Shown in pieces: positions 726 to 26,501 of a stretch of 64,000 nucleotides of DNA. The stretch lies in assembly GCF_965233445.1 (NCBI RefSeq), contig NZ_OZ247491.1; one strand, given 5' to 3'. Under the pieces are notes generated by a model. The model was not told where the DNA came from. It did no database searches and worked only from the letters and a program-made list of their open reading frames with translations. Source of the DNA: Hoeflea sp. (lineage in GTDB: Bacteria > Pseudomonadota > Alphaproteobacteria > Rhizobiales > Rhizobiaceae). Position 1 is the first letter of the stretch. The number at the start of each line of letters is the position of its first letter. The position numbers and the translations under genes are program-made.

Positions 726-1346
726 ATGACCAGCTCAACCGCCAAGCCCGACGCCCCGTACAGGACCGCGTCCAGATCCTCGAGACCCGGCATGAAAGCT
801 GCTGCCGGGCAGGACCTCGAGGCAGGGGGGAACATGTCATCGCAGCTCTCCGGCGGCTCTGGGGTCACGGCCGATGTGCAGGACCTGGCGCTCGCCATCC
901 TTTCAGGGCCCCATCGTCTGACGGCCGCCCAGCTGATCGCCCGCCAGGGCAGCGCAGGCCGGCATGCCGCGCCAGACGCGGTTGCCGCGGTCGGTCTGTC
1001 GGGATTGGCCCAGGCCATCGACATCATGCGGTGCACGGTTGTGCTGAGGCTGGTGAGTGAACTGTTCGATGTGGCGACCGACGCAGGCGTGCCTGAAGGC
1101 GTGGCGCGCCGCAGGCCTCTGTGCCACATGCGCCAGATCGCGATGTATCTCAGCCATGTGGTGCTGTCCGTGCCCTATCAGACCATCGGGCGGAGCTTTG
1201 GCCGCGATCGCAGCACGGTGGTTCATGCCTGCGCGGTGGTCGAGGATCGTCGCGACGATCCCGGCTACGATCTTTTTGTCGAGCGTTGCGAGCGCTGCGT
1301 CAACGCGGTCTTCGCACCGGTCGGGTTCTCTCATGAAGACCGCTGA
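726..1346 (+). CDS. DnaA domain-IV-like helix-turn-helix protein (not full-length DnaA)
   Basis: SD aaaggag lies upstream of the ATG. The C-terminal RQIAMYLSHVVLSVPYQTIGRSFGRDRSTVVHACAVVEDRRDD resembles the DnaA C-terminal DNA-binding domain. Confidence 0.65.
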   Translation: MTSSTAKPDAPYRTASRSSRPGMKAAAGQDLEAGGNMSSQLSGGSGVTADVQDLALAILSGPHRLTAAQLIARQGSAGRHAAPDAVAAVGLSGLAQAIDIMRCTVVLRLVSELFDVATDAGVPEGVARRRPLCHMRQIAMYLSHVVLSVPYQTIGRSFGRDRSTVVHACAVVEDRRDDPGYDLFVERCERCVNAVFAPVGFSHEDR

Positions 1347-2187
1347 GATGCGCGCGCTTCGCAAGGCGCTGTCCGGCATGATCGGCTTTCTGGCGCGCGG
1401 TGTTGCCGAGACCGCCGGGCCCGGGACCGGACAGGGCGGGGCAGGCGGAAGTGGAACCGGTGGGCACCTTTCGGAGATCGAGCTCGTGAGGACCGATGGA
1501 GCGCGGCGCAAGGTGTCCGCGGTTGTTCTCAACGCGGCATTGGCGCGAGGGCTTGTGTCCTGCACGACCGCGCCCGCTTCCGGTTCGAAGGACCCTGTTC
1601 GCAGCTATGCGTTGACGGGCGCCGGGAGCGCGGCGCTGAGGCGGATGCTCGCAGATCCCGACAGCGCCTTTCAGCAACAGCATCGCAGGCTCCGCGTCCG
1701 AAGCGATACGGAGCACGGTTCGGTTGCCGTCAATGATCTGGAATCACCACTTGCGGCGCTGGCAAGGATCAAGGGCAGGGACGGGGACCCGTTTCTTGCG
1801 CCGGATCTGGTGGAGGCGGGCGAACGGCTGCGCGCCGATTTCACCCGTGGCCATCTCATGCCGTCGATCGGCCAAAGCTGGGAGCCGGTGCGTGCGGGCA
1901 GAACGGCCGGCGATCGATCCGGTCTGAACGATCTCACCGATGCCGCGCTGTCCGCCCGTCGCCGGGTGGAGAATGCCATTGCCGTGCTTGGCCCTGATCT
2001 CTCCGGCGTGGCGCTCGACGCCTGTTGTTTCCTGAAGAGATTGTCGCAGATCGAACGTGAGCGGCAGTGGCCGGCGCGCTCGGCCAAGCTGATGCTGCGA
2101 ACCGCGCTTGCCGCGCTCGCCAGGCATTATGCCGAGCCAGGCCGGAAGCCCGTCACGCGGCGCGCGCCGCCGCCGCATGCGCCTTGA
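1333..2187 (+). CDS. DUF6456-like protein, start overlaps the preceding gene
   Basis: ATG at 1333 overlaps the upstream stop by 14 nt. The C-terminal GPDLSGVALDACCFLKRLSQIERERQWPARSAKLMLRTALAALARHY is typical of the partner of the DnaA_C-like gene in alphaproteobacteria. The DUF number is from memory. Confidence 0.55.
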   Translation: MKTAEMRALRKALSGMIGFLARGVAETAGPGTGQGGAGGSGTGGHLSEIELVRTDGARRKVSAVVLNAALARGLVSCTTAPASGSKDPVRSYALTGAGSAALRRMLADPDSAFQQQHRRLRVRSDTEHGSVAVNDLESPLAALARIKGRDGDPFLAPDLVEAGERLRADFTRGHLMPSIGQSWEPVRAGRTAGDRSGLNDLTDAALSARRRVENAIAVLGPDLSGVALDACCFLKRLSQIERERQWPARSAKLMLRTALAALARHYAEPGRKPVTRRAPPPHAP

Positions 2188-9751: not shown

Positions 9752-10363
9752 CTAACGGGCGGCGATACCCGCGGCTGCACCGGCCAGCAGACCGGACGAG
9801 CAGCGGTTGACGGCCCGAAGCGCACGCGGGCTTGCAAACAGCATCCGCGCCCTTGCGGCCAGAAACACCCACAAGAGATCGATCATGATCAGGACGGCCA
9901 GCATGGTTGCCGTCAGCTCGAACCATCCCGTCAGCGTAAGGCGGCTGAGATCGACGATTGTCGGCAGAAGCGCCAGGTAGAAAACCATGATCTTCGGGTT
10001 TCCGAGCGTGACGGCGAGCCCCGCCGCAAACAGCCGCAGCGCGGAGCCGCGATCCGGCAGCGCTTCCGTCGAAACATGGACCGGAGCGTGCCACATTTTC
10101 CATGCCAGATAGACGAGATAAAGAACGCCAGCCCATTTCAACACCATGAAAACGGCGTTGAAACTCTGTGCCAGGGCGGCAAGGCCGAACACCGCAAATG
10201 TGAGCCAGATGGCTTCCCCGATCCACATGGCAGCCAGGAACGGCAGGACATCGGCCGGCCCGCGGGCAATCACTCGCGCAACCAGCGCTGCGATGCTGGG
10301 ACCGGGCGATCCGGCTGCGACAAACAATGCGCCGGCAAACACCAGCAAGGCTCCGATTTCCAT
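9752..10363 (-). CDS. LysE family amino-acid exporter
   Basis: MEIGALLVFAGALFVAAGSPGPS... is a typical LysE/RhtB N-terminus. About 6 TM segments, 203 aa. Confidence 0.8.
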   Translation of the reverse strand: MEIGALLVFAGALFVAAGSPGPSIAALVARVIARGPADVLPFLAAMWIGEAIWLTFAVFGLAALAQSFNAVFMVLKWAGVLYLVYLAWKMWHAPVHVSTEALPDRGSALRLFAAGLAVTLGNPKIMVFYLALLPTIVDLSRLTLTGWFELTATMLAVLIMIDLLWVFLAARARMLFASPRALRAVNRCSSGLLAGAAAGIAAR

Positions 10364-10410
10364 CTTGGGTCTCCCTGACCGGACCGATTATGCCTTTGAA
10401 TCGAGACCGC

Positions 10411-10935
10411 TCAAGACATTTGTTCGGCGGGATGATCTGCTCCGGCGCCGGCTGAGAAGCCGAGCAGGGCGATCCCGCACATCAGCACGGCCAATCCGCT
10501 TGCCAGGGTGCGGACGATGTTCCAGAACTGCCAGCGCCCGGAATAGTCCTGCCAGATGTCCGCTCCGTTCCCCATGGCCGCCGAGGGATCGACAGCCGCA
10601 AGGGCCTGGTTCATGGGCACGTTGAACATGGCGGTCACACCGATGCCGCCGATCACATAGATCGCGGCCGCGACGGCAAGAAAGCGGGCCGGACCGGTTT
10701 GAGAGGCGCGCCAGGCGGCGATCGATGCCGCAACGAGAACAACCGGCGTCAGGAAGAAGGCCGGGAAAAAGACCGGGTTCCGCACCGATACATTCATGGC
10801 CTGCATCGCCTCGATGGCCTGGACGGGCTGGAGCGTGTCCAGCCCCCAGATGGTGGAACAGATCCAGGCGTAGAAGAAGCCGAAGATCGCCGCCGTCATC
10901 ATCAGCGCCAGAAGCGCGAGACTGCGCGCGGCCAT
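10411..10935 (-). CDS. DUF1772 (anthrone oxygenase-like) membrane protein
   Basis: Four-TM 174-aa protein with FGFFYAWICS near the N-terminus. Family assignment is from memory. Confidence 0.5.
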   Translation of the reverse strand: MAARSLALLALMMTAAIFGFFYAWICSTIWGLDTLQPVQAIEAMQAMNVSVRNPVFFPAFFLTPVVLVAASIAAWRASQTGPARFLAVAAAIYVIGGIGVTAMFNVPMNQALAAVDPSAAMGNGADIWQDYSGRWQFWNIVRTLASGLAVLMCGIALLGFSAGAGADHPAEQMS

Positions 10936-11342
10936 CAGGATTTCGCTCCCTCGCCGGCAGCCTTGCGGATCGAGCGGCCCCGCAGCAACAGGTTTGCGAT
11001 CAGGATCAGGGATGCAGCCTGACCGCCGAGGACCGCGGGCCAGATCAGCGCGAACTGGGCATCGACATATTTCTGCGGGCCGAACGACAAGAGCGCCATC
11101 AGGGCCGCGAGGCCTCCGGCCCAGCAGCCGGCCCGGCTCGATCCCGGCCCCAGGATCAGGGCTGCTGCCGCCACAGACAGCGCCACACCGAGAAACGGGG
11201 CGATGCCGAACAGGGGGATTGCCTCGGGCGGGTGCGGGGGCACGCCGGCATAGAGTGCCGCAAGCATGACCGATTGCAGGATGATCAAGCTCGCAACGGC
11301 GGCGGAGGGGATACGGTCAGCGGATTTCATGGCAGTCTCCAT
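10935..11342 (-). CDS. Hypothetical integral membrane protein
   Basis: 135 aa and highly hydrophobic. The stop overlaps the start of the downstream gene. Divergent from the tetR gene. Confidence 0.5.
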   Translation of the reverse strand: METAMKSADRIPSAAVASLIILQSVMLAALYAGVPPHPPEAIPLFGIAPFLGVALSVAAAALILGPGSSRAGCWAGGLAALMALLSFGPQKYVDAQFALIWPAVLGGQAASLILIANLLLRGRSIRKAAGEGAKS

Positions 11343-16714: not shown

Positions 16715-16816
16715 ATGTGGTGTGGGGATGGAGCGTGGGTAGAGCGGGTGGAATGTTCAAGGAACGCGCATTGTGGTATCTTTGACCAAAACCTGCGGAA
16801 ATCGACCGGAGCCGGC

Positions 16817-17065
16817 ATGCAACGCACATATTTCGTCAGGGCTGTGTGGGATGAAGAAGCGGAAGTGTTCGTTTCCGAAAGCGATATTATCGGCCTGCAC
16901 ATCGAAGCGGAAACCGTGGACGAATTCGAGGCCATGTTGCGAGATGTCGCGACCGATCTGGTGATCGCCAACCACATAAGCCCGGAACAACTGGAAACCA
17001 CGCCATTACGCGAGTTGATCCCGACAATCGTGTGGGAACGGCCCGGACCAGAAATGGCCGCCTGA
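16817..17065 (+). CDS. hicB: HicB-like antitoxin (DUF1902 type)
   Basis: YFVRAVWDEEAEVFVSESDIIGLHIEAETVDEFEAMLRDV is DUF1902/HicB-like. It lies immediately upstream of hicA with a 1-nt gap. Confidence 0.7.
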   Translation: MQRTYFVRAVWDEEAEVFVSESDIIGLHIEAETVDEFEAMLRDVATDLVIANHISPEQLETTPLRELIPTIVWERPGPEMAA

Positions 17066-17066
17066 A

Positions 17067-17264
17067 TTGGCGCCCGGCTTCTATCGCCAAGTTTGCGAGG
17101 AACTGACCCGGGCAGGTTTTGCGTATCTCTCCAATGCAAAGGGATCCCACGAGAAGTGGCGGAACCCCGAGACCGGTAGACTGGTACTTGTGCCGCGCAA
17201 TCTCAAAAGCCGCCACACGGCAAATGCGATCATGAAATCGGCGGGCGTGGAAAAGAAGCTCTGA
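17067..17264 (+). CDS. hicA: HicA family mRNA interferase toxin
   Basis: GFAYLSNAKGSHEKWRNPETGRLVLVPRNLKSRHTANAIMKSAGV is the HicA/YcfA signature. TTG start. Confidence 0.8.
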   Translation: MAPGFYRQVCEELTRAGFAYLSNAKGSHEKWRNPETGRLVLVPRNLKSRHTANAIMKSAGVEKKL

Positions 17265-17333
17265 TTGCTCGCCAAGTGGCCCCTCACAATTATGCCCAAA
17301 CCAGGATTCCCGCTTCAGTTGCCGAATAAGTCT

Positions 17334-17430
17334 CAAGGTTTCAGACCGTGAATACGCCGACATGCTGCTTGAAGCCATCTGTGGCAAGCGCCTGACCTAT
17401 CGGAGGATTGGTAAAGCCAATTGCGCCTAA
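17334..17430 (+). pseudogene. 3' remnant (about 32 codons) of an IS1595-family transposase gene
   Basis: It translates to ...ADMLLEAICGKRLTYRRIGKANCA*. This aligns at the nucleotide level with the 3' end of the intact copy at 24797-24896. Confidence 0.8.
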
Positions 17431-17670
17431 ACAAAAGGCGCGAAAGCTTCTCCACAAGCGCAAGAAACGCAACCTGTGATTCCCCGGGAATGCTCACGCA
17501 ACCCACTTGCATACTCCAGAACATTAGGAGAACGTGAAAGGCGACCGATTCGCACTCGGTCGCCTTCGTTCAAACAAGCCATGGGACGGCTCGCATGAAA
17601 CACAATCAGATTTTGAATCCTCCCGCGATTCTCGTCAAGCGTCCTGCGGCCAAATGCAGGAGACTTTAAG

Positions 17671-17961
17671 ATGGCCAAGCGCGCCCAAATCAAATGCATC
17701 AACAAAAACGACCGTTACAATCCATACGAACGGATCACGCACGTTGGAGGGCATGTCACTTCACAGTGGAAGATCACACTAGACGACGCAATCGCCAGGA
17801 TCGAGAACGGCGAATGGGAATTTTTTGTCGGCGGTGGTGGGCTTCTCACTCCAGAAGTGAATGTTATCGTCGCGGAGAGCCCGCATGGGAACAAGTACCT
17901 GAAGACTGAAGCGGATGATCGGGAGCCGAACAACCTTCTGAGTCTTCCCGAATGCCCATGA
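17671..17961 (+). CDS. DUF3892 domain protein
   Basis: NKNDRYNPYERITHVGG...WKITLDDAIARIENGEWEFFV...YLKTEADDREPNNLLSLPEC. AGGAG SD upstream. Confidence 0.75.
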   Translation: MAKRAQIKCINKNDRYNPYERITHVGGHVTSQWKITLDDAIARIENGEWEFFVGGGGLLTPEVNVIVAESPHGNKYLKTEADDREPNNLLSLPECP

Positions 17962-17994
17962 TCATCAAGTAGGACGCTCGAATGACTGTAGGCT

Positions 17995-18222
17995 CTAAAC
18001 CCATTCTAAAGCTTGTTGGGCGACGTACAGTTCGGCGTCGCGCCCTCGGCCGGAGACGAGCGTGGTACGAATGCGGTCAATCTCTCTTTGAATGAAACTC
18101 ATTGACTCTTCCTTCTTCGGCTTACCGTCCCTCCCGGTCTTCGGATCGGGAGGGGTTTTCAACAGGTGGCGCAAAACGTCGTCGCCCTTTTCCTGGTCTG
18201 TTTTCTTACTGGTGTCTGACAT
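17995..18222 (-). CDS. Small K/R-rich protein with LRHLLKTPPDPK motif ('TPP' family, U0 copy)
   Basis: The shared motif KGD(D/E)VLR(H/R)LLKTPPDP also occurs in the 25146-25316 copy. Related motifs are in 19764-19949 and 22629-22781. The start could be 18222 or 18279. Confidence 0.45.
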   Translation of the reverse strand: MSDTSKKTDQEKGDDVLRHLLKTPPDPKTGRDGKPKKEESMSFIQREIDRIRTTLVSGRGRDAELYVAQQALEWV

Positions 18223-18832
18223 GAGCAAAACTCTATCGGAGATTGACGGTATAAAGTTGGCATTGGGCGATATGTGCATTGCATGGGCGCACTTGGAGGA
18301 TGACTACTTCACGTTGGCGCTTTACCAATTTGAGTCATTCGACAGCGAAATCTCTCAAGCGCTTCAATCAGTATTAGACATCAGGGACATGGCGGCGCTT
18401 CAGAAAAATACTGCGCTAGCAAGGCCCAGAAACATCATCACTGATCACCTGATTTGCCTCGCTGACCAAATTGACAAAGAGCTTAGGCCTGTCAGAAACC
18501 GCTTTATCCACGACCCAATTTTTAAATTCAATGACTCCTACGAATTCGTAGACCGTACAGCCCGGATAAGAAAGCCTCAGGCGTTTAAGATCGAAATAAC
18601 TTTCCAGAATTGCTCGCCCGCGTCTAGCGAACGAATTGAAGCATTCACAAAGTGCATTCGCTGCGCACACGAATACGCGGGTGAGATTTTTGGCATTTTG
18701 GAATGCATGGATGACGCTGCAAAGTGGGGGCTGCCTCTTGGCGATCAAGAAGCGCGGGTACTCCGCGCAAACTTGGCCGAGGCCATCGCGGCGTACAAAG
18801 AAATGACCAAATCTCCAGAACCCAAAGAGTAA
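18221..18832 (+). CDS. HEPN-like protein (R-x4-H motif), U0 effector
   Basis: IAWAHLEDD helix and VRNRFIHDP (R-NRFI-H). It has the same architecture as the 25315-25932 protein. An alternative start at Met18 (18272) is possible. Confidence 0.5.
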   Translation: MSKTLSEIDGIKLALGDMCIAWAHLEDDYFTLALYQFESFDSEISQALQSVLDIRDMAALQKNTALARPRNIITDHLICLADQIDKELRPVRNRFIHDPIFKFNDSYEFVDRTARIRKPQAFKIEITFQNCSPASSERIEAFTKCIRCAHEYAGEIFGILECMDDAAKWGLPLGDQEARVLRANLAEAIAAYKEMTKSPEPKE

Positions 18833-18933
18833 TCGTCCGGCGCTACCCACCTCGACAATTCTCTCACGCCCGCCTCAATCATCTCAGGCGTAATCTCAAT
18901 CTCTTCTGTCCTTGTCTCGTCTGCGTCCGTCAT
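18745..18933 (-). CDS. Small protein with EIEITPEMIEAG motif (U0 copy)
   Basis: GGAGAG SD upstream of the ATG at 18933. The EIEITPEMIEAG motif is shared with 19047-19259 and 21295-21564. The 3' end overlaps the effector gene convergently. Confidence 0.5.
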   Translation of the reverse strand: MTDADETRTEEIEITPEMIEAGVRELSRWVAPDDYSLGSGDLVISLYAAMASAKFARSTRAS

Positions 18934-19008
18934 AGGAAACTCTCCGTTTCCTTGACGCACCTACCGGCCTTTCACGCAGGGGAATCATGCCTTTCTGATT
19001 ATGGTACG

Positions 19009-19050
19009 TAAAGTAGATAAATAGGAAAATAATCCTAATTATATACGTGA
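19009..19050. repeat. Junction palindrome P1 (degenerate copy)
   Basis: TAAAGTAGATAAATAGGA-AAATAA-TCCTAATTATATACGTGA, with 4 mismatches to the consensus palindrome. Confidence 0.85.
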
Positions 19051-19259
19051 CAAAAGTGACCGATTCGGATAAACCATCTGGCGACAGGCCGGCAAACGAG
19101 ATTGAAGTTACCCCGGAGATGATCGAGGCGGGGGCGTTGTCTATGTCTGGTTATGATCCTGATTTCGACACGCTAGAGTCGATATCCCTTGAAATCTTCC
19201 GAGCAATGATCGTTGCTAGTCCAAAGGGATTTGTGGTTGATGTTCATCTTCTAGATTGA
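19047..19259 (+). CDS. Small protein with EIEVTPEMIEAG motif (U1 copy)
   Basis: Family motif plus ...LEIFRAM. GTG start with no obvious SD, so the start is uncertain. Confidence 0.4.
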   Translation: MTKVTDSDKPSGDRPANEIEVTPEMIEAGALSMSGYDPDFDTLESISLEIFRAMIVASPKGFVVDVHLLD

Positions 19260-19707
19260 AAAGCTCCGGACGCAAGGTGCACATGATCCCAGTTCGGTAA
19301 AGCTGTGCGGTCGCAACAAAACGATCCCTCGGCGCGAGAAGGGCGCGCCCCTGAAATCTAGGTTCTTGATGTCTATCAAGGAGGGTCAAGTGTTTGCATG
19401 TGTCGGCCACTTCGTTGGTGGCAAAGCTTATTGGTTTTCGCGAATGCGCGAATGTATTTCGGATGTGACGTATCAAGCTCAAGTCGTGCCTAGCCTGCTT
19501 ACCTATGAGGCCTAATGCATAGGCTAAATTGATCTTCGCGGAAAAGGTAGAAATAGGGCTATCTCCTATGAATATTTCACCTATTTCGGATTGAGTCAGC
19601 GGGACCATTTTTGACAAAATGAACTCTTTTAGATCATCTTCCAGGTGGGTCGATACGATGATTGCGGCGGCACGATCATCTGAGCGATCCAAATGCGACG
19701 GCTGCAT
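19216..19707 (-). CDS. HEPN-like protein (MtlR/DUF4145-like, IRNTFAH motif), U1 effector
   Basis: STHLEDDLKEFI..., STFSAKINLAYALGLIGKQARHDLSLIRHIRNTFAHS (R-x4-H). The ORF is open up to a GTG at 19848, so the start is uncertain. Confidence 0.5.
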   Translation of the reverse strand: MQPSHLDRSDDRAAAIIVSTHLEDDLKEFILSKMVPLTQSEIGEIFIGDSPISTFSAKINLAYALGLIGKQARHDLSLIRHIRNTFAHSRKPISFATNEVADTCKHLTLLDRHQEPRFQGRALLAPRDRFVATAQLYRTGIMCTLRPELFNLEDEHQPQIPLD

Positions 19708-19763
19708 AAGAGCATCAGCTACACTAGGCCGCTCTCGGCTAAGCCGCTTTAAGTTGGAGAGAT

Positions 19764-19949
19764 ATGTTGGATCACGAGACAAAGACGGCCCCCAATGAAA
19801 CGGAAAAGCGCCGCGATGACGCCTTGCGCCGCGCACTATCGACGCCACCGAAACCTAAACGGGAATCAAGCAAGGCGAAAGACGAGTCCAGTGACACCAA
19901 AAGAGCTAAACGACAGGATAAGGGCGTTCACCCATCGCGCGGGAACTGA
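19764..19949 (+). CDS. Small K/R-rich protein with ALRRALSTPPKPK motif ('TPP' family, U1 copy)
   Basis: Motif family member, divergent from the U1 effector. Confidence 0.4.
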   Translation: MLDHETKTAPNETEKRRDDALRRALSTPPKPKRESSKAKDESSDTKRAKRQDKGVHPSRGN

Positions 19950-20158
19950 GATTTCTCAAGAAGCCGGATCATGGCTTCGAGGGACTGACCATAATCACCC
20001 TGACGTTCTTCGTCAGACAGATCAGCGGCAACGTCCAACAGGTAGTCAATCAACTTCTCACGATTGATGACGCCCTGGTCAATTAGGGCCGCAATAACGG
20101 CCATGTTTGCGAAAAGCAGGCCGTATACTGGGCCCATATCTCTAAGGGGTTCCCTCAT
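19928..20158 (-). CDS. Hypothetical 76-aa protein (variable slot of U1)
   Basis: AAGGAAG SD 7 nt upstream of the ATG at 20158. No recognisable domain. Confidence 0.45.
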   Translation of the reverse strand: MREPLRDMGPVYGLLFANMAVIAALIDQGVINREKLIDYLLDVAADLSDEERQGDYGQSLEAMIRLLEKSQFPRDG

Positions 20159-20205
20159 CGCGACTCTTCCTTTTTCGAATCGCTAGGAGCTTACGCGCTT
20201 TCTGC

Positions 20206-21195
20206 TTAGGCGTAACTGGCTTGACCAGTTTGATTATAGGTCAACCGCTTGCCAGATGCGCCACGGATCGCATCTTCGGCCCGTTCACGGTCTGAAATTT
20301 TGAGCGCGGTACGGCGGTTATAGCGGAAATCGAATTCTGCCAGATAGCGGTGCAGGTGAGCCTCGCCGCAATGCTGATAGATACCGATCATGCCGCGCTT
20401 GAAGATGGAGAACACGTTCTCAATCGTGTTTGAGTGCACAACGGCATCGCCCTCACGGCGGGCATATTCCTTCGCGGAATGCCTGACAGTGCGGTGTGTA
20501 GCGTATTCCTCACCGGTCGCTGTGTAGAGGCGTGACTCGTCGGTGTAGAGGTTGGACTTGCGGTCAACGTTGCGGACCAGAACATCGCGGAGAATGTCCT
20601 TGGTGGCGTTCTGCACGAGGAACATGCGGGACTTGCCGCCACGCTCGACCAGACCGACAACGATACGCTTGTCCGCACCACCCGCCTTGCCCGACTTCGT
20701 AGGCTTGGCAATGCGGCCACGGGAAAGCTGACGAGGAGTTTCACGCTTACCGATGTAGGTTTCATCGGCTTCAACGGTCTTGCCTTCACCGCCAAGAGGA
20801 CCAGACGAGGCAACGTCCTCTTTCATGGCTTCGCGGATACGGTGAGCCATGAACCAAGCAGTCTTGTAGGTGACGCCAAGCATACGGTGTAGCTGGTGAG
20901 CGGACATGCCCTTCTTGGATGCTGCGAACAGGTGAAAAGCGAATACCCACTTCGACAGCGGAACCTTTGACCGCTCCATGACGGACCCCACGGTGACGGT
21001 GAACTGACCGCCACACTCATTGCAGTAGTAGAGGCCCTTACGGTGCGTCTGCTTCTTGCCTTCGACTTTCGCAATCTTGGACGCGTCAATGTTGCCGCAA
21101 TGCGGGCAGTTCGGGCCGTGGGGCCAACGAATAGCCTCAAGGTGCTCACGGGCTGCGTCTTCGTCGTGAAAGATAGGATCGTTGAAAGCGGTCAT
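20206..21195 (-). CDS. IS1595-family (ISXO2-like) DDE transposase with N-terminal zinc ribbon
   Basis: CPHCGN...YYCNECGGQF zinc ribbon. DDE-type residues lie in VEADETYIG, LYTDESRLY and HSNTIENVFS. AAGGAG SD upstream of the ATG at 21195. Confidence 0.85.
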   Translation of the reverse strand: MTAFNDPIFHDEDAAREHLEAIRWPHGPNCPHCGNIDASKIAKVEGKKQTHRKGLYYCNECGGQFTVTVGSVMERSKVPLSKWVFAFHLFAASKKGMSAHQLHRMLGVTYKTAWFMAHRIREAMKEDVASSGPLGGEGKTVEADETYIGKRETPRQLSRGRIAKPTKSGKAGGADKRIVVGLVERGGKSRMFLVQNATKDILRDVLVRNVDRKSNLYTDESRLYTATGEEYATHRTVRHSAKEYARREGDAVVHSNTIENVFSIFKRGMIGIYQHCGEAHLHRYLAEFDFRYNRRTALKISDRERAEDAIRGASGKRLTYNQTGQASYA

Positions 21196-21239
21196 TGGTT
21201 TAACTCCTTGACCTCTTTTCGCAAATGGCCCTACTTTTG

Positions 21240-21281
21240 TCAAGTATATAATTAGGAAAATAATCCTAATTATATACTTGA
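21240..21281. repeat. Junction palindrome P2 (perfect 42 bp)
   Basis: TCAAGTATATAATTAGGA-AAATAA-TCCTAATTATATACTTGA. Confidence 0.95.
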
Positions 21282-21294
21282 GAAAGCAAAAATC

Positions 21295-21564
21295 GTGACG
21301 TATGATTCGGGCCGACAGGCCGGCACGGAAAAGACCGAGGAAATTGAGATTACGCCGGAGATGATTCAGGCGGGGCTTTCGGCGTGGTCGGAGTGCGAAG
21401 CTATGCGCGTTGAACGGAGCGCCACTTTGAAGCTGATCTTTTGTAGGATGTGGCTTTTAATGGAGAGGAGCCCCGTTCTTTCTGATGACGAACCAGAAGG
21501 CTTTGAGGAATATGAGGCTAAAATCATTGCGGCTTGGAAAGCCGATGGCTACATCAAGGTCTGA
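21295..21564 (+). CDS. Small protein with EIEITPEMIQAG motif (U2 copy)
   Basis: Family motif. GTG start. The 3' end overlaps the 358-aa gene by 11 nt, convergently. Confidence 0.4.
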   Translation: MTYDSGRQAGTEKTEEIEITPEMIQAGLSAWSECEAMRVERSATLKLIFCRMWLLMERSPVLSDDEPEGFEEYEAKIIAAWKADGYIKV

Positions 21565-22630
21565 ATGTTTTTTCAAAGTCTGCGATAATTGCTGCGCTCA
21601 TACGGAGTAGCTGAGTGAGGGTTTTTACCACGTCGGAGCCGCCAAATGGGCGAAATCCGGTAGGGAATTTCGCTGCCGTTCCACCGGCTAATCGGCTCAA
21701 TTTATGCATCGGCTCCGAGCCTTTCCGGGCATAAAGTCTTGTACCCTCTTGAATAGGTATTATGACTTGAGGACCTAAGTATCCAATGCTTGGGGTGGGA
21801 GTGGATTGATCCAATTCTAGATAAGATTCAATAGATTTTACGACATCCAACTCATGATGGGAAACTACATAAGTAGGCAGGATGATTTTATGTTTGTCCG
21901 TAATATCAAGATCATGAAGGCCTCTAAGCTCCAAATTTCCATCGACCGAAACAGGGCGTAATTCCCTGATTTTTTGTACCATTTTTTTATTTAGTTTTTT
22001 GCAGTGGTCGTCAGCGAGAATCTTTTCCAGATGAGACATATCTTTCGCAAACGGCATTTTTAACTGTTTTGAGCTTTGGTTAGAAAGCCGCGCCAAATCT
22101 CCTATCAATATATCTAATGAGCTACGCAGATTGTGAGCTATGTCGCCGATTATTAAAGGGATCAACCCTGGTGCGGGCCCTCGAAAAGTTGCCCGCCACT
22201 CTATGGTATTGTCATCATAAGGGCCCACTTCAACTGGAATTATGGTGAGCCGTTCCCCGTATCGCCAGATCTCCTCAACAAGTTGCTCCAACAAGAGGTG
22301 AGCCCTCATAAGCTTCATATTCGGACCGACAAACGGCTTTACATTGCCACTGGAGTCAGTCTCAGGCGTCGGCATCCAAGAATGAATGAACATTTCCGGC
22401 GGGTTGCCCAATTCAGCAAACCGTGCCCTTCTAGACAGCTCTGATATTTCCCAAGATGCAAACGATAGCTGGTCGCTATCAAATTCAAAATATGACATCG
22501 TCTTGGTCTTAGATAGAAGTCCGAAGTAAACTTTGAGACCTTCTTCAGTATGGGCTACACAGTACCGGTGAAACTTTTCGACCGGTATCGCTTTTGAGAA
22601 TTCATCTAGTGGGTTAGATTCTGATTCCAT
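21554..22630 (-). CDS. Hypothetical 358-aa protein, U2 effector slot (no confident domain)
   Basis: Long ORF in the most AT-rich stretch of the window. Motifs IGDIAHNLRSSLDIL and LHDLDITDKHKII were noted but not assigned to a family. Confidence 0.6.
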   Translation of the reverse strand: MESESNPLDEFSKAIPVEKFHRYCVAHTEEGLKVYFGLLSKTKTMSYFEFDSDQLSFASWEISELSRRARFAELGNPPEMFIHSWMPTPETDSSGNVKPFVGPNMKLMRAHLLLEQLVEEIWRYGERLTIIPVEVGPYDDNTIEWRATFRGPAPGLIPLIIGDIAHNLRSSLDILIGDLARLSNQSSKQLKMPFAKDMSHLEKILADDHCKKLNKKMVQKIRELRPVSVDGNLELRGLHDLDITDKHKIILPTYVVSHHELDVVKSIESYLELDQSTPTPSIGYLGPQVIIPIQEGTRLYARKGSEPMHKLSRLAGGTAAKFPTGFRPFGGSDVVKTLTQLLRMSAAIIADFEKTFRP

Positions 22631-22781
22631 GCACAACACCGACGATCAAAAGTTCAATGAAACCCTCAAGCGGATGCTAAAGACGCCGCCGAAGCCGCAC
22701 GATAGCGACAACGGGAAGTCGAGTCACACGGAAAAAGCGAAGCCAACTAAAGCTTCGCCTTCCGTTTCCTCAAAGCGATGA
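22629..22781 (+). CDS. Small K/R-rich protein with LKRMLKTPPKPH motif ('TPP' family, U2 copy), 50 aa
   Basis: Hand translation gives MHNTDDQKFNETLKRMLKTPPKPHDSDNGKSSHTEKAKPTKASPSVSSKR. Its ATG shares CATG with the 358-aa gene start. Confidence 0.4.
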   Translation: MHNTDDQKFNETLKRMLKTPPKPHDSDNGKSSHTEKAKPTKASPSVSSKR

Positions 22782-22798
22782 CTCGTCTGATTTTTTGC

Positions 22799-23779
22799 TT
22801 AGGCGTAATTGGCTTCACCAATCCGCCGATAAGTCAGACGTTTGCCGTTGATGCGTGAAAGCAAATCGTCGTGTCGTTCGGTATCTGAGACCTTGAGCGC
22901 GGTACGACGGTTATAACGGAAATCGAACTCTGCCAGATAGCGGTGCAAGTGGGCTTCGCCGCAGTGCTGGTAAACGCCAACCATGCCGCGCTTGAAGATG
23001 GAGAACACGTTCTCAATTGTGTTTGAGTGCACGACTGCATCGCCCTCACGGCGGGCATATTCCTTCGCGGAATGCCTGATAGTGCGGTGAGTAGCGTATT
23101 CCTCACCGGTCGTGGTGTAGAGGCGCGACTCGTCGGTGTAGAGGTTGGACTTGCGGTCAACGTTGCGGACCAGAACATCGCGGAGAATGTCCTTGGTGGC
23201 GTTCTGCACGAGGAACATGCGGGACTTGCCGCCACGCTCCACAAGGCCCACGACGATACGCTTATCAGCACCACCGGCCTTGCCCGACTTGGTAGGCTTG
23301 GCAATGCGGCCACGGGAAAGTTGGCGAGGGGTTTCGCGCTTACCGATGTAGGTTTCATCGGCTTCAACGGTTTTGCCTTCGCCACCAAGAGGACCAGACG
23401 AGGCAACGTCCTCTTTCATTGCTTCGCGGATACGGTGAGCCATAAACCAAGCGGTCTTGTAGGTGACGCCAAGCATACGGTGCAGCTGGTGAGCGGACAT
23501 GCCCTTCTTGGATGAAGTCATCAAGAAAGTGGCGAGAAGCCATTTATTCAGCGCGATCTTAGAGCGTTCAAACACGGTGCCGACGGTAACGGAGAACTGC
23601 TTACGGCATTCCATGCAGTTGTAGAGGCCGGGGCGGTGAGCCTTGCCCTTCATCTCTGTGATGCGGGTCTGGTCGCAGTTGCCGCAATGAGGGCAAACAG
23701 GACCATTCGGCCACTGCATAGCCTCAAGATGTTCGCGGGCTGCGTCTTTGTCGGTGAAGATTTTGTCGTCAAGTTTCAT
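22799..23779 (-). CDS. IS1595-family (ISXO2-like) DDE transposase with N-terminal zinc ribbon
   Basis: Same domain motifs as 20206-21195. The central segment of about 125 aa is identical at the protein level. SD ACGGAG upstream. Confidence 0.85.
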   Translation of the reverse strand: MKLDDKIFTDKDAAREHLEAMQWPNGPVCPHCGNCDQTRITEMKGKAHRPGLYNCMECRKQFSVTVGTVFERSKIALNKWLLATFLMTSSKKGMSAHQLHRMLGVTYKTAWFMAHRIREAMKEDVASSGPLGGEGKTVEADETYIGKRETPRQLSRGRIAKPTKSGKAGGADKRIVVGLVERGGKSRMFLVQNATKDILRDVLVRNVDRKSNLYTDESRLYTTTGEEYATHRTIRHSAKEYARREGDAVVHSNTIENVFSIFKRGMVGVYQHCGEAHLHRYLAEFDFRYNRRTALKVSDTERHDDLLSRINGKRLTYRRIGEANYA

Positions 23780-23825
23780 AGGCTTCGCTCCGTTGTCCTT
23801 TTATAGGAAATCGGATCGTGCTTTG

Positions 23826-23867
23826 TCAAGTATATAATTAGGAAAATAATCCTAATTATATACTTGA
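23826..23867. repeat. Junction palindrome P3 (perfect 42 bp, 44 bp with the flanking G/C)
   Basis: Same sequence as P2. It lies between two divergent transposase genes. Confidence 0.95.
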
Positions 23868-23912
23868 CGTACCAGATCGGATTTGGCATAAAGGACTCAA
23901 GGAGTTAAGCCA

Positions 23913-24896
23913 ATGTTCGACCTGACCAACGAGATTTACCACGACGCCGACAAGGCCCGCGAGCATCTGGAAGCTATCCAGTGGCCGCACGGTCCTATCT
24001 GCCCGCATTGTGGCAACTGCGATCAGACGCGCATTACCAAGCTTGAAGGCGCTTCAACCCGTCCCGGCGTGTACAAGTGCAATGAATGCCGCAAGCCCTT
24101 CTCGGTCACTGTCGGCACTGTGTTTGAGCGCTCCAAGATCGGCCTGCACAAATGGGTTCTGGCAACGCACCTTCTGGCTTCATCCAAGAAGGGCATGTCC
24201 GCACACCAGCTGCACCGTATGCTTGGCGTCACCTACAAGACCGCTTGGTTTATGGCTCACCGTATCCGCGAAGCCATGAAAGAGGACGTTGCCTCGTCTG
24301 GTCCTCTTGGCGGCGAAGGCAAAACCGTTGAAGCCGACGAAACCTACATCGGAAAGCGCGAAACCCCTCGTCAGCTTTCCCGTGGCCGCATTGCCAAGCC
24401 TACGAAGTCGGGCAAGGCGGGCGGTGCGGACAAGCGTATCGTTGTCGGTCTGGTCGAGCGTGGCGGCAAGTCCCGCATGTTCCTCGTGCAGAACGCCACC
24501 AAGGACATTCTCCGCGATGTTCTGGTCCGCAACGCTGACCGCAATTCCAACCTCTACACCGACGAGTCGCGCCTCTACACCTCAGTTGGTGAGGAATACG
24601 CTACGCACCGCACTGTGAAGCATTCCCGCAAGGAATATGCCCGCCGTGAGGGCGATGCCGTGATTCACTCCAATACGATTGAAGGCGTCTTCTCAATCTT
24701 CAAGCGTGGCATGATCGGTATCTATCAGCATTGCGGCGAAGCTCACCTTCACCGCTACCTTGCTGAATTTGATTTCCGCTATAACCGCCGCTCGGCTCTC
24801 AAGGTTTCCGACCGTGAGCGCGCCGACATGCTGCTTGAAGCCATTCGCGGCAAGCGCCTGACCTATCGGCGGATTGGTGAAGCCAGTTACGCCTAA
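23913..24896 (+). CDS. IS1595-family (ISXO2-like) DDE transposase with N-terminal zinc ribbon
   Basis: CPHCGN...YKCNECRKPF, then VEADETYIG, LYTDESRLY and HSNTIEGVFS. AAGGAG SD upstream. Confidence 0.85.
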   Translation: MFDLTNEIYHDADKAREHLEAIQWPHGPICPHCGNCDQTRITKLEGASTRPGVYKCNECRKPFSVTVGTVFERSKIGLHKWVLATHLLASSKKGMSAHQLHRMLGVTYKTAWFMAHRIREAMKEDVASSGPLGGEGKTVEADETYIGKRETPRQLSRGRIAKPTKSGKAGGADKRIVVGLVERGGKSRMFLVQNATKDILRDVLVRNADRNSNLYTDESRLYTSVGEEYATHRTVKHSRKEYARREGDAVIHSNTIEGVFSIFKRGMIGIYQHCGEAHLHRYLAEFDFRYNRRSALKVSDRERADMLLEAIRGKRLTYRRIGEASYA

Positions 24897-25028
24897 GCAG
24901 AAGGCGCGAGCTATTCTCAGAAAACGCAAAAAGCGCTAGCTTATTTGCGGTTGTTGATTCGCCTCAGCCACACCTCTCAGGGTTATGCCTTAAGCCGGGC
25001 CACTGCCCGAGAAAGGAGGTGAGAGCGA

Positions 25029-25139
25029 ATGTCCAAGGCAACCAAAATCGGTCGAAGCGCGGTTACGGGGCGCTTTACAACGGTGAAAACCGCAGTGAAG
25101 CATCCCCGTACCCACATCGTGGAGACCCGTAAAAAGTAA
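25029..25139 (+). CDS. 36-aa protein MSKATKIGRSAVTGRFTTVKTAVKHPRTHIVETRKK (variable slot of U3)
   Basis: Very strong SD GAAAGGAGG 8 nt upstream. The S-A-x-TGRF...HP-x-T pattern resembles a widespread small-protein family (from memory). It is below the ORF-track cut-off. Confidence 0.5.
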   Translation: MSKATKIGRSAVTGRFTTVKTAVKHPRTHIVETRKK

Positions 25140-25145
25140 GCCAGC

Positions 25146-25316
25146 CTAGCTGTCTTCTTCCGGGCGGTGTTTCTGTGCAGGAGTGCCGCCCGGTTTCGTT
25201 TTCTGACCTGAATCGCTTGTGCGAGACTTGTGCCCCGGATCAGGCGGGGTTTTCAACAGGCGGCGCAATACCTCGTCGCCCTTTTCCTGGTCTTTGCTCA
25301 TGGATGATTCTGACAT
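25146..25316 (-). CDS. Small K/R-rich protein with VLRRLLKTPPDPG motif ('TPP' family, U3 copy), 56 aa
   Basis: Hand translation gives MSESSMSKDQEKGDEVLRRLLKTPPDPGHKSRTSDSGQKTKPGGTPAQKHRPEEDS. An in-frame TGA two codons upstream fixes the ORF's 5' limit. Confidence 0.45.
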   Translation of the reverse strand: MSESSMSKDQEKGDEVLRRLLKTPPDPGHKSRTSDSGQKTKPGGTPAQKHRPEEDS

Positions 25317-25932
25317 GCCTCAGCCCTTGTCTAAAGTCTGTCCCAATTGCTCGTACAGCATCGGCGCGACTGGTGCACCCGCGTTGCCCAGCCGCCCAGA
25401 ATTGGCAGCCCTTGCAATGGAGTCGATAGCCTCATGGTCGCACGTCGAAGCTGAATTGCTTAGAGTTTATATCCAGCTAATGGGAGGGAAAGATGACCGA
25501 GCGACCGTCGCTTACCTATCCCTTGAAACCCAAGGCGCAAAAACAAACGTCATATCTGCTGTTGCCAAATCCTTCTTGGGGAAAGACGAACTCTCGGTTC
25601 TTAACGCAATTCTGCGATTAGCAAAGACGAACCAAAAGCATAGGGACAAATTAGCGCATTGGATTTGGGGAATATGCCCGGATCTGCCAGACGCCATCCT
25701 TTTGGCAAACCCGAAAAACATGAAATCCGGTTACCCCGACCCCTCAGAGGTGTTCGTTTACAAAGCGAAAGATTTCACCCAAATCATTGAAGCAAACAAA
25801 CGGCTTGCCTCACTAGCAGGGGGACTCATACTCGCGCTTTTTCCCCCTTCTGATTGGCCACACAAGCTCTCACCACTTGAGTTGCTATGTAAGGCACCTG
25901 AGCTTCGAGAAATCCTAAGTCATCAGGCTTAG
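25315..25932 (+). CDS. HEPN-like protein (R-x4-H motif), U3 effector
   Basis: IASWSHVEAE helix and HRDKLAHWIWG (R-DKLA-H). An alternative start at Met35 (25417) is possible. Confidence 0.5.
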   Translation: MPQPLSKVCPNCSYSIGATGAPALPSRPELAALAMESIASWSHVEAELLRVYIQLMGGKDDRATVAYLSLETQGAKTNVISAVAKSFLGKDELSVLNAILRLAKTNQKHRDKLAHWIWGICPDLPDAILLANPKNMKSGYPDPSEVFVYKAKDFTQIIEANKRLASLAGGLILALFPPSDWPHKLSPLELLCKAPELREILSHQA

Positions 25933-26014
25933 CAAATTCGATCTCTCGACGGAGAATCGACTCAACGGCCTTAACCAGACCGCCAAACCCGTCTTTCTCG
26001 TCTGTCGTCGTCAT
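25826..26014 (-). CDS. Small protein in the EIEIT-gene position of U3 (motif not conserved)
   Basis: The 5' UTR, SD and first codons are nearly identical to the 18745-18933 copy. The body has diverged. The 3' end overlaps the effector gene by 107 nt. Confidence 0.35.
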   Translation of the reverse strand: MTTTDEKDGFGGLVKAVESILRREIEFAKPDDLGFLEAQVPYIATQVVRACVANQKGEKARV

Positions 26015-26089
26015 AGGAAACTCTCCGTTTCCTTGACGCACCTACCGGCCTGTCACGCCGCCGAATCATGCCTTTTCGATTCTGGTACG

Positions 26090-26120
26090 TCAAGTATATA
26101 ATTAGGAAAATAATCCTTGA
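26090..26120. repeat. Junction palindrome P4 (left arm + spacer + truncated right arm), right edge of the island
   Basis: TCAAGTATATAATTAGGA-AAATAA-TCC then TTGACGG. The right arm looks like the consensus with 11 internal nt missing. Confidence 0.85.
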
Positions 26121-26501
26121 CGGCGTCACGGTCCTTTGGTAGGGTTATGTCATCGTCACAGAGTTGCGCCGGTGGGGCGGCGGTTCAGCCGTCCGTTTGA
26201 CGGTTCGGGGCTTGGGCTTCGAACCGGAAGGATCGGTGGAATTGATCCGGGGTGCCCGGTCTTGCGGGTTGATCCGTGGCAGGGTCCGCGAGAGACGAAA
26301 ACATGATGGAAATGCGCCAAGCGCCTCTGGTTCGTCCAGGGCGCTTTTTTGTTGGCCGAAAGCCGGCGCGTCCGGTGCGGCGACTGGGTGTTGAACCGCG
26401 TCGGATGGCCGCGCACTGGCTGCCGGTTATCGCTTGCCCGTGACCGGCGCGGCTGGGGCCGAGCGTCCGGCCGGACGGGCCAATTGAAACGAGGATTGAC
26501 C

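Follow-up and report, generated by a model that had tools for sequence, protein, structure and literature searches.

Insertion sequences (IS) of the IS1595 family customarily duplicate 8 bp of target DNA. Elements of other families are known to accumulate at one place: IS30 and IS21 insert beside their own inverted repeats, which gives end-spacer-end junctions, and use palindromic hot-spots that resemble their ends, and Tn7-like elements insert site-specifically at attTn7, a neutral "safe harbor" downstream of the conserved gene glmS, where the site stays usable and elements and relics accrete into islands. The TnCentral preprint defines transporter IS (tIS) as IS-like structures whose repeats enclose passenger genes that have nothing to do with transposition, and a passage in PMC3129680 that cites Siguier, Gagnevin & Chandler (2009) places members with passenger genes in the ISNwi1 subgroup of IS1595. 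IS1595 elements with passengers, which an earlier description of the present locus from its sequence (the original prediction) had invoked, are thus an established category. Here, we analyze an array of such units in a 64-kb stretch of a Hoeflea sp. contig (the window; all coordinates are window positions). Three intact units (U1-U3) and one 5′-truncated unit (U0) abut one another ahead of a gene transfer agent (GTA) cluster. Our best explanation, to which we assign a probability of roughly 0.8, is that the region arose by four independent insertions of IS1595-family tIS (three intact, one an old stump) at a self-regenerating site that resembles the element tips, and that the copies recombine and carry toxin-like cargo.

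The array stands out in the window by its ends. The end sequence TCCTAATTATATACKTGA, allowing up to three mismatches, occurs seven times in the 64 kb, always between 19009 and 26107, whereas no copy was expected (100 shuffles). This bears out the predicted array, including the 5′ truncation of U0, in which we found the last 33-42 codons of a transposase (about 32 had been predicted), ending ...SLKVSDREYADMLLEAICGKRLTYRRIGKANCA*. All three full transposases match DDE_Tnp_IS1595 (PF12762; E 2.5e-36 to 4.6e-35) and Zn_ribbon_IS1595 (PF12760; E about 1e-11 to 1e-13), their match to NF033547 scores 194 bits against a cut-off of 75, and residues D142, D217, and E257 fall in invariant stretches. The inverted repeats extend into unit-specific sequence as first described, but the lengths had to be revised to 25 nt with one mismatch in U1 and about 24 nt with one mismatch in U2; the 27/27 match in U3 stood. 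The supposed 6-bp AAATAA spacer between units proved to be an 8-bp target duplication (A-AAATAA-T, AAAATAAT) lying between element tips CCT...AGG, which leaves the four units in place and shifts their exact ends. The gene layout proposed for all units also held: a transposase read inward from one end, a small gene (here called sm) read inward from the other, and between them a variable effector and a small gene divergent from it (here called KR). The exception is U3, whose "small EIEITPEMIEAG gene" lacks the motif and shares the N-terminus MRQGNGEFPMT alone. The island is AT-richer than its surroundings, as had been noted, with about 47-57% GC against 60-70% in the flanks. Scans across the window detected no tRNA gene, so the island is not tRNA-linked, and no integrase ORF was present in or near it, again as predicted; since its boundaries are IS inverted repeats with target duplications, it is not an integron.

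For comparison, we retrieved 80 loci encoding relatives of the transposase (labeled L001 and so on). Among them were 68 units of 2.0-3.6 kb flanked by the repeat core xxxxAATTATATAC(T/G)TGAC, all of which contain 1.0-2.6 kb of non-transposase genes inside the repeats and therefore qualify as tIS. About six classes can be told apart by the inner part of the repeat (GTACC/T, AAAGC, AAAAG, ATAGC, AAAGT, and GTAG), and the class is identical at both ends in 65 of the 68. Transposase N-termini share an identity of 0.72 within a class versus 0.61 between classes, whereas the corresponding values for the catalytic core are 0.66 and 0.645. Because the N-terminus, unlike the core, is more alike within a class, we conclude that the inner repeat covaries with the N-terminal domain of the transposase.

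The repeats have further regularities. Position 15 is systematically asymmetric across units, with T on the transposase side (TTGAC, a -35 box) and usually G on the sm side (GTGAC), as at window position 19047 versus 21243. In classes AAAAG and AAAGC, the GTG at position 15 opens the sm ORF (MTKVT... or MTKQ...) within the repeat. Four units (L001_9692, L019, L035, L123) have ~240 nt more between the left repeat and the transposase start (~300 versus ~64). Outward promoter-like sites span the junctions at 21237-21264 and 23823-23850 on the + strand and at 19053-19026 on the - strand, with a -35 TTGTCA in the AAAAG or AAAGC repeat and a -10 AATAAT or TATTTT in the 8-bp duplication. They point into the adjacent unit and are consensus matches only (10 versus 6.6 expected in the region).

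The length of the duplication could be read from relatives with GGC tips (L055, L058, L066, L073, L076-78, L080), whose flanks are unrelated to the tips: 8 bp fits, and these relatives exclude both 6 bp and 10 bp. A 14-bp duplication (AGGA-N6-TCCT) is excluded by L011, L016, L033, and L035. In the clade with CCT tips, 8 bp fits every unit, and nearly all units overall have perfect 8-mers, the sequence of which varies from locus to locus. The two clades differ in what lies beyond the duplication. In the CCT-tip clade (75 ends), the flank reads (T)ATAGG, with A 83%, G 87%, G 96%, and A 89% at positions -10 to -7, and the duplication is AT-rich, with six AT-rich bases following these positions; the flank of the GGC-tip clade (46 ends) is without sequence information. 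Judged from these flanks, the target of the CCT-tip clade is a palindrome, (T)ATAGG-N8-CCTAT(A), resembling two back-to-back CCT tips. In the window, TAGGA-N6-TCCT is found at the junctions only. An origin of the ATAGG flank as the decayed repeat of an older element is ruled out at most loci, where only TCCTAT is kept beyond the duplication; at one locus, L082 (described below), it is possible.

A target of this kind would allow units to stack. A CCT-tip tIS, mobilized by its own zinc-ribbon/DDE transposase from a promoter whose -35 (TTGAC) lies inside the left repeat, would insert at ATAGG-N8-CCTAT and duplicate 8 bp. Both sides would then read tip-AGG, 8 bp, CCT-flank, so that the target would be regenerated twice; the slot would stay open, and copies of other specificity classes could arrive later in either orientation. 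We infer both this mechanism and the transposition of the units from the anatomy of their sequences. A regenerated target predicts arrays with one common 8-mer, mixed orientations, and mixed classes, and this is matched in the window, whose junctions include right-right, left-right, and left-left types, and in L001, L016, and L027, where stacked units recur. Abutting second ends are also present in L003, L008, and L015, and metagenomes contain three further arrays. Heterotypic neighbors within arrays were not counted as evidence of target immunity, as there are only five junctions and the effect is not significant.

We next consider where the units lie. With unit-like DNA masked (unmasked, relic units chain loci together), the flanks of 63 loci formed 21 context clusters, 16 of them singletons, and copies were also found on a plasmid and beside a relaxase. 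The nearest flanking genes were Terminase_6N (6), ROS_MUCR (5), PBP domains (4), and DUF6456 (3), with a handful seen twice and the rest once. Two slots predominate. Slot 1 has pbp1A/ycgN/DUF1328 (or other genes) on one side and the GTA head on the other. Units fill it in the window, in L001-L006, L008, L009, L015, L018, L027, L028, and L066, and in five Mesorhizobium loci that have a common flank with a terminase N-domain gene 1.7 kb off. The GTA-side flank of this slot is conserved across genera as AGG-N8-CC-TTGACG, 17 bp, TAGGGT, which places the elements immediately ahead of the -35 box of the GTA cluster promoter. The promoter-like element of the window has TTGACG at 26117-26122 and, after 17 bp, TAGGGT at 26140-26145 (its L082 counterpart lies within 11215-11270), with the near-palindrome CCGT(C/G)ACGG (CCGTSACGG) in the spacer. 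About 20 nt of the leader (CATCGTC..A.A.TTGCG) are kept in 11 genera; no Rfam family was matched across the window, so the leader is no known RNA. At the Caulobacter GTA and gafYZ promoters, upstream GafY and IHF sites are needed and a GafZ palindrome lies between -35 and -10 (PMC11150451). The position of the spacer palindrome recalls this GafZ element. By analogy, insertion directly upstream of the -35 would displace such upstream sites by kilobases.

Slot 2 lies between mucR/ros and a DUF6456 gene, and DUF6456 proteins are homologues of GafA, a direct activator of GTA (PMC9638019). The start codon of this gafA-like gene is 20-150 nt from the element, and only ~20-30 nt in L014, L019, L030, and L097. 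The units found in a single slot are of different repeat classes, face either way, and vary in number, a variety that argues for repeated insertion. The GGC-tip relatives, without the target motif, are likewise found at GTA slots (L066 near TerL, L078 beside gafA). A MucR/Ros gene recurs on the far side of the gafA slot (L007 8721-9272, L014, L019, L030, L031, L036, L039, L062) and also 2-3 kb from the plasmid-borne unit (L081 8797-9243). Seven units share a third context (L011, L035, L037, L058, L059, L063, L064), and the L011 unit has a DsbA-like gene on one side and an S24-peptidase repressor-like gene on the other. A third slot beside lexA is ruled out, as the S24 protein scores 25 bits against a lexA cut-off of 111.

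Since both main slots are GTA control regions, at the -35 of the cluster promoter and just before the gafA-like start, the elements might be selected at, or directed to, promoters of the GafA regulon and rewire or gate GTA activation. This could occur through displaced upstream activator sites, through outward transcription, or through effectors that act during producer-lysing GTA production. The motif-less relatives at the same slots point in this direction, as do the Caulobacter promoters with their GafY and IHF sites upstream of the -35, and, of 35 IMG/VR contigs in which the end sequence occurs, at least 12 have a GTA TerL 0.6-1.2 kb away, although that collection is biased to GTA-like regions. 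An immune system governing GTA release has also been described (PMC13236601). We nevertheless regard such a functional link as unlikely: about half of the loci lie elsewhere, both orientations face the GTA genes, contrary to one fixed transcriptional coupling, and the gafA-like (DUF6456) gene of the window itself, detected with a profile from unit-flanking gafA-like genes at 1057-2184 (+), 18 kb upstream of the island, has no adjoining unit. More doubtful still is the stronger form, that this tIS clade is a dedicated colonist of GafA-regulon promoters (GTA cluster and gafA) forming a transposase-built, integron-like array of nuclease cassettes that gates or exploits GTA activation and lysis.

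The history of slot 1 is visible in its relics. At the orthologous site in L082, DUF1328 is followed by 873 bp and then by ...ATATAGG-AAAATTAT-CCTTGACGCCGTGACGG, with flanks 84% identical to the window; homology to the window breaks off at 16782 and is picked up again at 26103, which is five bases short of the U3 end as first given. The search for an empty site, in which the DUF1328 gene would be followed directly by the GTA cluster, thus returned a site without the array but not a fully empty one. L082 positions 10329-11201 hold a decayed KR-like ORF and an intact-looking ORF with the R-x4-H signature of the effectors (10567-11081), with no transposase and no recognizable left repeat, and the target site is still intact. 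On this evidence, L082 is a stranded cargo relic next to an intact target, and the KR-like and R-x4-H remains indicate that its slot was formerly occupied. The junction between hicA and the U0 transposase stump is kept at 85-97% identity in three other contigs (L083, L085, L088), so the truncation of U0 is old. The hicB/hicA pair (16800-17264) lies inside the variable island and directly abuts the U0 stump; it is absent from L082 and present in L083, L085, and L088. Transposase fragments or unit remnants also flank intact units elsewhere (L017 3984-4592, L024 12834-13061, L008 13021-13256, L004, L041, L066, L080), showing that slots accumulate relics besides live copies.

Could the units instead be a domesticated, immobile module with vertically inherited features, in which the palindromes are divergent promoter or operator sites of a GTA-linked regulatory or defense locus? 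The slot between pbp1A/ycgN/DUF1328 and the GTA head is filled in many genera, unit divergence is similar to that of host genes, every junction lies between divergent genes and contains promoter-like hexamers, and the transposase cores are under strong purifying selection, as if domesticated. We consider this improbable. Perfect 8-bp duplications are near-universal and differ in sequence by locus, the units occupy at least 21 unrelated contexts besides the plasmid and the relaxase neighborhood, same-slot occupants vary, an orthologous site without the array is known, and the two ends of a unit agree in repeat class, which covaries with the transposase N-terminus. The same observations, together with the 68 matched-repeat units recovered when copies were sought in related genomes, uphold the original prediction that each unit is a discrete IS1595 transposable entity with passengers rather than one duplicated promoter. 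Homologous gene sets at conserved chromosomal positions without repeats had been named as evidence to the contrary; the positions are conserved, but the repeats are always present. Conserved slots with repeats and varying occupants point to targeted insertion rather than to immobility.

The transposases of the array bear on how its copies have evolved together. The cores of U1-U3 are closest to one another (identity 0.90-0.93; dN/dS 0.05-0.11), whereas the nearest relatives of their N- and C-terminal parts are elsewhere, L001_7311 for U1, L001_9692 for U3, and L008/L019/L026 for U2. Synonymous divergence (dS) is 0.27-0.40 in the core versus >1.2 in the N-terminal part. From the distant terminal kin and the low core dS, our reading is that the three classes arrived independently and that the shared core was then gene-converted under purifying selection. 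Independent insertion is further indicated by the three junction types and the varying slot occupants. Stacked copies would thus recombine, homogenizing the cores, with class specificity retained in the inner repeats and in the DNA-binding N-terminal parts. The transposase end (78%), a segment of KR (82%), and the final 122 nt (89%) are common to U0 and U3 but the effector is not, indicating that the effector cassette was swapped; such exchange would have the conserved KR and sm/repeat segments as its borders. Derivation of the array from a single element, by local tandem duplication or by formation of IS dimers, with later divergence would explain the identical AAAATAAT spacers at all four junctions, the mutual closeness of the cores relative to any other genome, and abutted ends that look like the dimers of IS30 and IS21, but it is the least plausible account, as the kin of each transposase outside the core lie in other genomes, dS is far higher in the N-terminal part, orientations are mixed, the cargos come from different effector families, and identical spacers are equally predicted by repeated insertion at a regenerated site.

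Within the repeats, the best conserved cargo gene is KR. It encodes a small basic protein with the core RDEvLRRMLKTPPKPH and, wherever it occurs (60 of 68 units), is read from the strand opposite the transposase. Variation falls at third and not at second codon positions, which identifies KR as a real gene; codon-position entropy rules out that it is a mere antisense of the effector 5′ region. A search of 1.84 billion representatives with a KR profile gave 971 clusters at 50% identity, almost all of them 40-70 residues long, and the few homologues bearing source names are called "hypothetical protein". In up to 39 of 54 units, of which a few may be spurious, the starts of KR and the effector overlap back-to-back (CATG) whatever the effector family; the window overlaps are at 18220-18223, 22628-22631, and 25314-25317. 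The upstream region of each gene therefore lies inside the other, and the two might be transcribed divergently without leaders. Within KR, on the effector-sense strand (18165-18186 and 25259-25280, +), a terminator-like hairpin with CTTTTCC after it lies ~35-55 nt before the effector start; U0 and U3 both retain this hairpin, which could dampen transcriptional read-through out of the transposase gene.

The effectors split into many families unrelated by BLAST. Of the links found by profile comparison with hhalign, those of family B (U0) to five other families have a probability of 84-98% and that to family A (U3) is weak; the linked families share R-[ND]-x3-H. An R-x4-H signature occurs in three window effectors (U0, U1, and U3; Table 1) and in many relatives. 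Family A has 35 homologues in 5.8 billion proteins; its RDKLAH is invariant in 31 homologues, both cases looked up adjoin an IS1595 transposase, and its structure model is all-helical with a pLDDT of 94.6. A profile match of family A to an "immunity factor for SPN" among PDB sequences (best E 0.05) and RnlA as a fold match of the effectors (E about 0.1) were not counted. The U1 effector matches Pfam MtlR (E 1.4e-7) and mannitol repressor (E 8e-4) and is the sole window effector to match a HEPN-related family, weakly. Two motifs, GD..HNLR..LD and N..L...H..D..DKH, are invariant in family C (U2), whose structure model is of moderate confidence. The third cargo gene, sm, is a small acidic ORF seen in about 60 units, where it is directed from the right repeat into the unit; its EIEVTPEMIEAG profile matches 26 of these ORFs and others resemble divergent versions, and the motif has a coding signature. 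The arrangement is not that of a type II toxin-antitoxin pair, since KR is divergent from the effector and sm convergent to it, and neither has a match in Pfam or NCBIfam. The most economical reading of the sequences is a toxin-like effector with small partners: a toxin-like nuclease might be neutralized or regulated by the small proteins and serve element retention or a defense-type role.

Several findings weigh against the explanation that we favor. As to the cargo, the U2 effector (family C) and several other families are without R-x4-H. Foldseek searches of the PDB gave no significant match for the fold of effector A (best E 0.2) and nothing below E 0.08 for effectors A and C, so that the HEPN-like character proposed for the effectors stands on the signature and the profile links but not on a fold. 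Pfam and NCBIfam gave almost nothing usable for KR, sm, most effectors, and 10 effectors from other loci, PADLOC gave no match for 10 island proteins, and none of the three databases directly supports toxin-like cargo. In class AAAAG units, where the sm ORF starts in the repeat, no convincing promoter or ribosome-binding site for sm was detected. As to mobility, the copy number per genome is apparently low, no never-occupied site was seen among the compared loci, L082 having its relic, and the U0 stump is old. The units of the window are 86-89% identical to those of L001 at the nucleotide level, near the 72-85% of the host flanks, and this similarity of unit and host divergence implies that long vertical residence is also part of the picture.

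Table 1. Coordinates of the array, its genes, and its surroundings in the window
Feature	Position	Strand	Remarks
Left part of variable island	16783..17304	+	HicB-like (DUF1902) and hicA (17067-17264), abutting truncated U0; Pfam labels from neighboring contigs L083, L085
U0, 5′-truncated tIS	17305..19025	+	GTACC-like class; degenerate right repeat ends at 19025
U0 transposase, C-terminal stump	17305-17430	+	
U0 DUF3892	17671-17961	+	proposed in the original prediction; confirmed by domain match
U0 KR	17995-18222	-	
U0 effector, family B	18221-18832	+	RNRFIH
U0 sm	18745-18960	-	
8-bp target duplication AAAATAAT	19026-19033; 21257-21264; 23843-23850; 26107-26114	n/a	4 copies
U1, intact tIS	19034..21256	-	class AAAAG
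U1 sm	19047-19259	+	
U1 effector	19216-19848 (start uncertain)	-	RNTFAH; weak MtlR/DUF4145 match
U1 KR	19764-19949	+	
U1 76-aa ORF	19928-20158	-	
U1 transposase	20206-21243	-	
U2, intact tIS	21265..23842	-	class AAAGC
U2 sm	21295-21564	+	
U2 effector, family C, 358 aa	21554-22630	-	without R-x4-H
U2 KR	22629-22781	+	
U2 transposase	22799-23779	-	
U3, intact tIS	23851..26106	+	class GTACC
U3 transposase	23913-24896	+	
U3 putative 36-aa ORF	25029-25139	n/a	
U3 KR	25146-25316	-	
U3 effector, family A	25315-25932	+	RDKLAH
U3 sm-like ORF	25826-26041	-	
Host flank/slot: CCT half-site, promoter-like element, leader start	26115..26170	+	reads toward GTA cluster
GTA cluster: g1-like ORF, then terminase	terminase from 27326	n/a	GTA genes named by Pfam in L082

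If the explanation by repeated insertion is correct, cassette arrays can be built without a site-specific recombinase, as the target would be regenerated with each insertion and homologous exchange would shuffle the effectors. At least five to six orthogonal pairs of transposase and end on one catalytic core would be available for studying how IS1595/Merlin-type transposases read ends and targets, and a large unannotated cargo would come into view, consisting of a small-protein family (~970 clusters at 50% identity) and several R-x4-H effector families. In several alphaproteobacterial orders, mobile elements would recur at the two key regions of GTA control, and modulation or exploitation of GTA activation by transposons would become testable. 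It is this recurrent occupation of two GTA control regions that we find of most interest, above the self-regenerating target, the class system, and the unannotated cargo.

How do the units compare with described systems? With IS1595 tIS they share the zinc ribbon and DDE transposase, short terminal repeats, the 8-bp duplication, and passengers inside the repeats. They differ from IS1595 tIS in general in having one conserved three-gene cargo layout, CCT tips, a tip-mimicking palindromic target, end-to-end stacking, and slots in GTA regions. The end sequences are GGCGATTATATAC in the GGC-tip relatives and CCTAATTATATAC in the window units; the ISNwi1 end consensus is presumably "ggnnatTAT", which GGCGATTATATAC would fit and CCTAATTATATAC would fit in the ATTAT part. 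A literature search on IS1595 with ISNwi1, HEPN, and gene transfer agent, with ISfinder and Siguier 2009 outside the search, turned up nothing that describes the conserved cargo, a target mimicking the tips, stacking, or the GTA slots. The conserved cargo, target mimicry with stacking, the two GTA-linked slots, and homogenized cores with class-specific N-termini appear to be new.

Mechanistically, the nearest analogy is own-end targeting by IS30 and IS21, together with Tn7-like accretion at attTn7. The units here belong to a different family from IS30 and IS21, however, their partners are diverged paralogues of different classes, and what separates their ends is a single copy of the 8-bp duplication. 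Unlike Tn7, they have no dedicated target selector; targeting is apparently by the transposase and a tip-like palindrome, and the harbor is the region upstream of a GTA promoter. By cargo, the nearest analogy is the toxin-antitoxin transposons of the Tn3 family, in which toxin-type genes (including HEPN) lie near the transposition genes and a role in persistence is plausible. Those elements use another transposase family and mechanism, and their cargos are recognizable type II pairs in operons, whereas the effector here lies between two small genes on the opposite strand, with overlapping starts and no match to a known toxin-antitoxin family. Integron arrays resemble the present array in their small units with one variable gene each, their fixed position, and their short palindromic boundaries. 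The array described here has no integrase, attI, or attC; each of its units instead has its own DDE transposase, inverted repeats, and target duplications.

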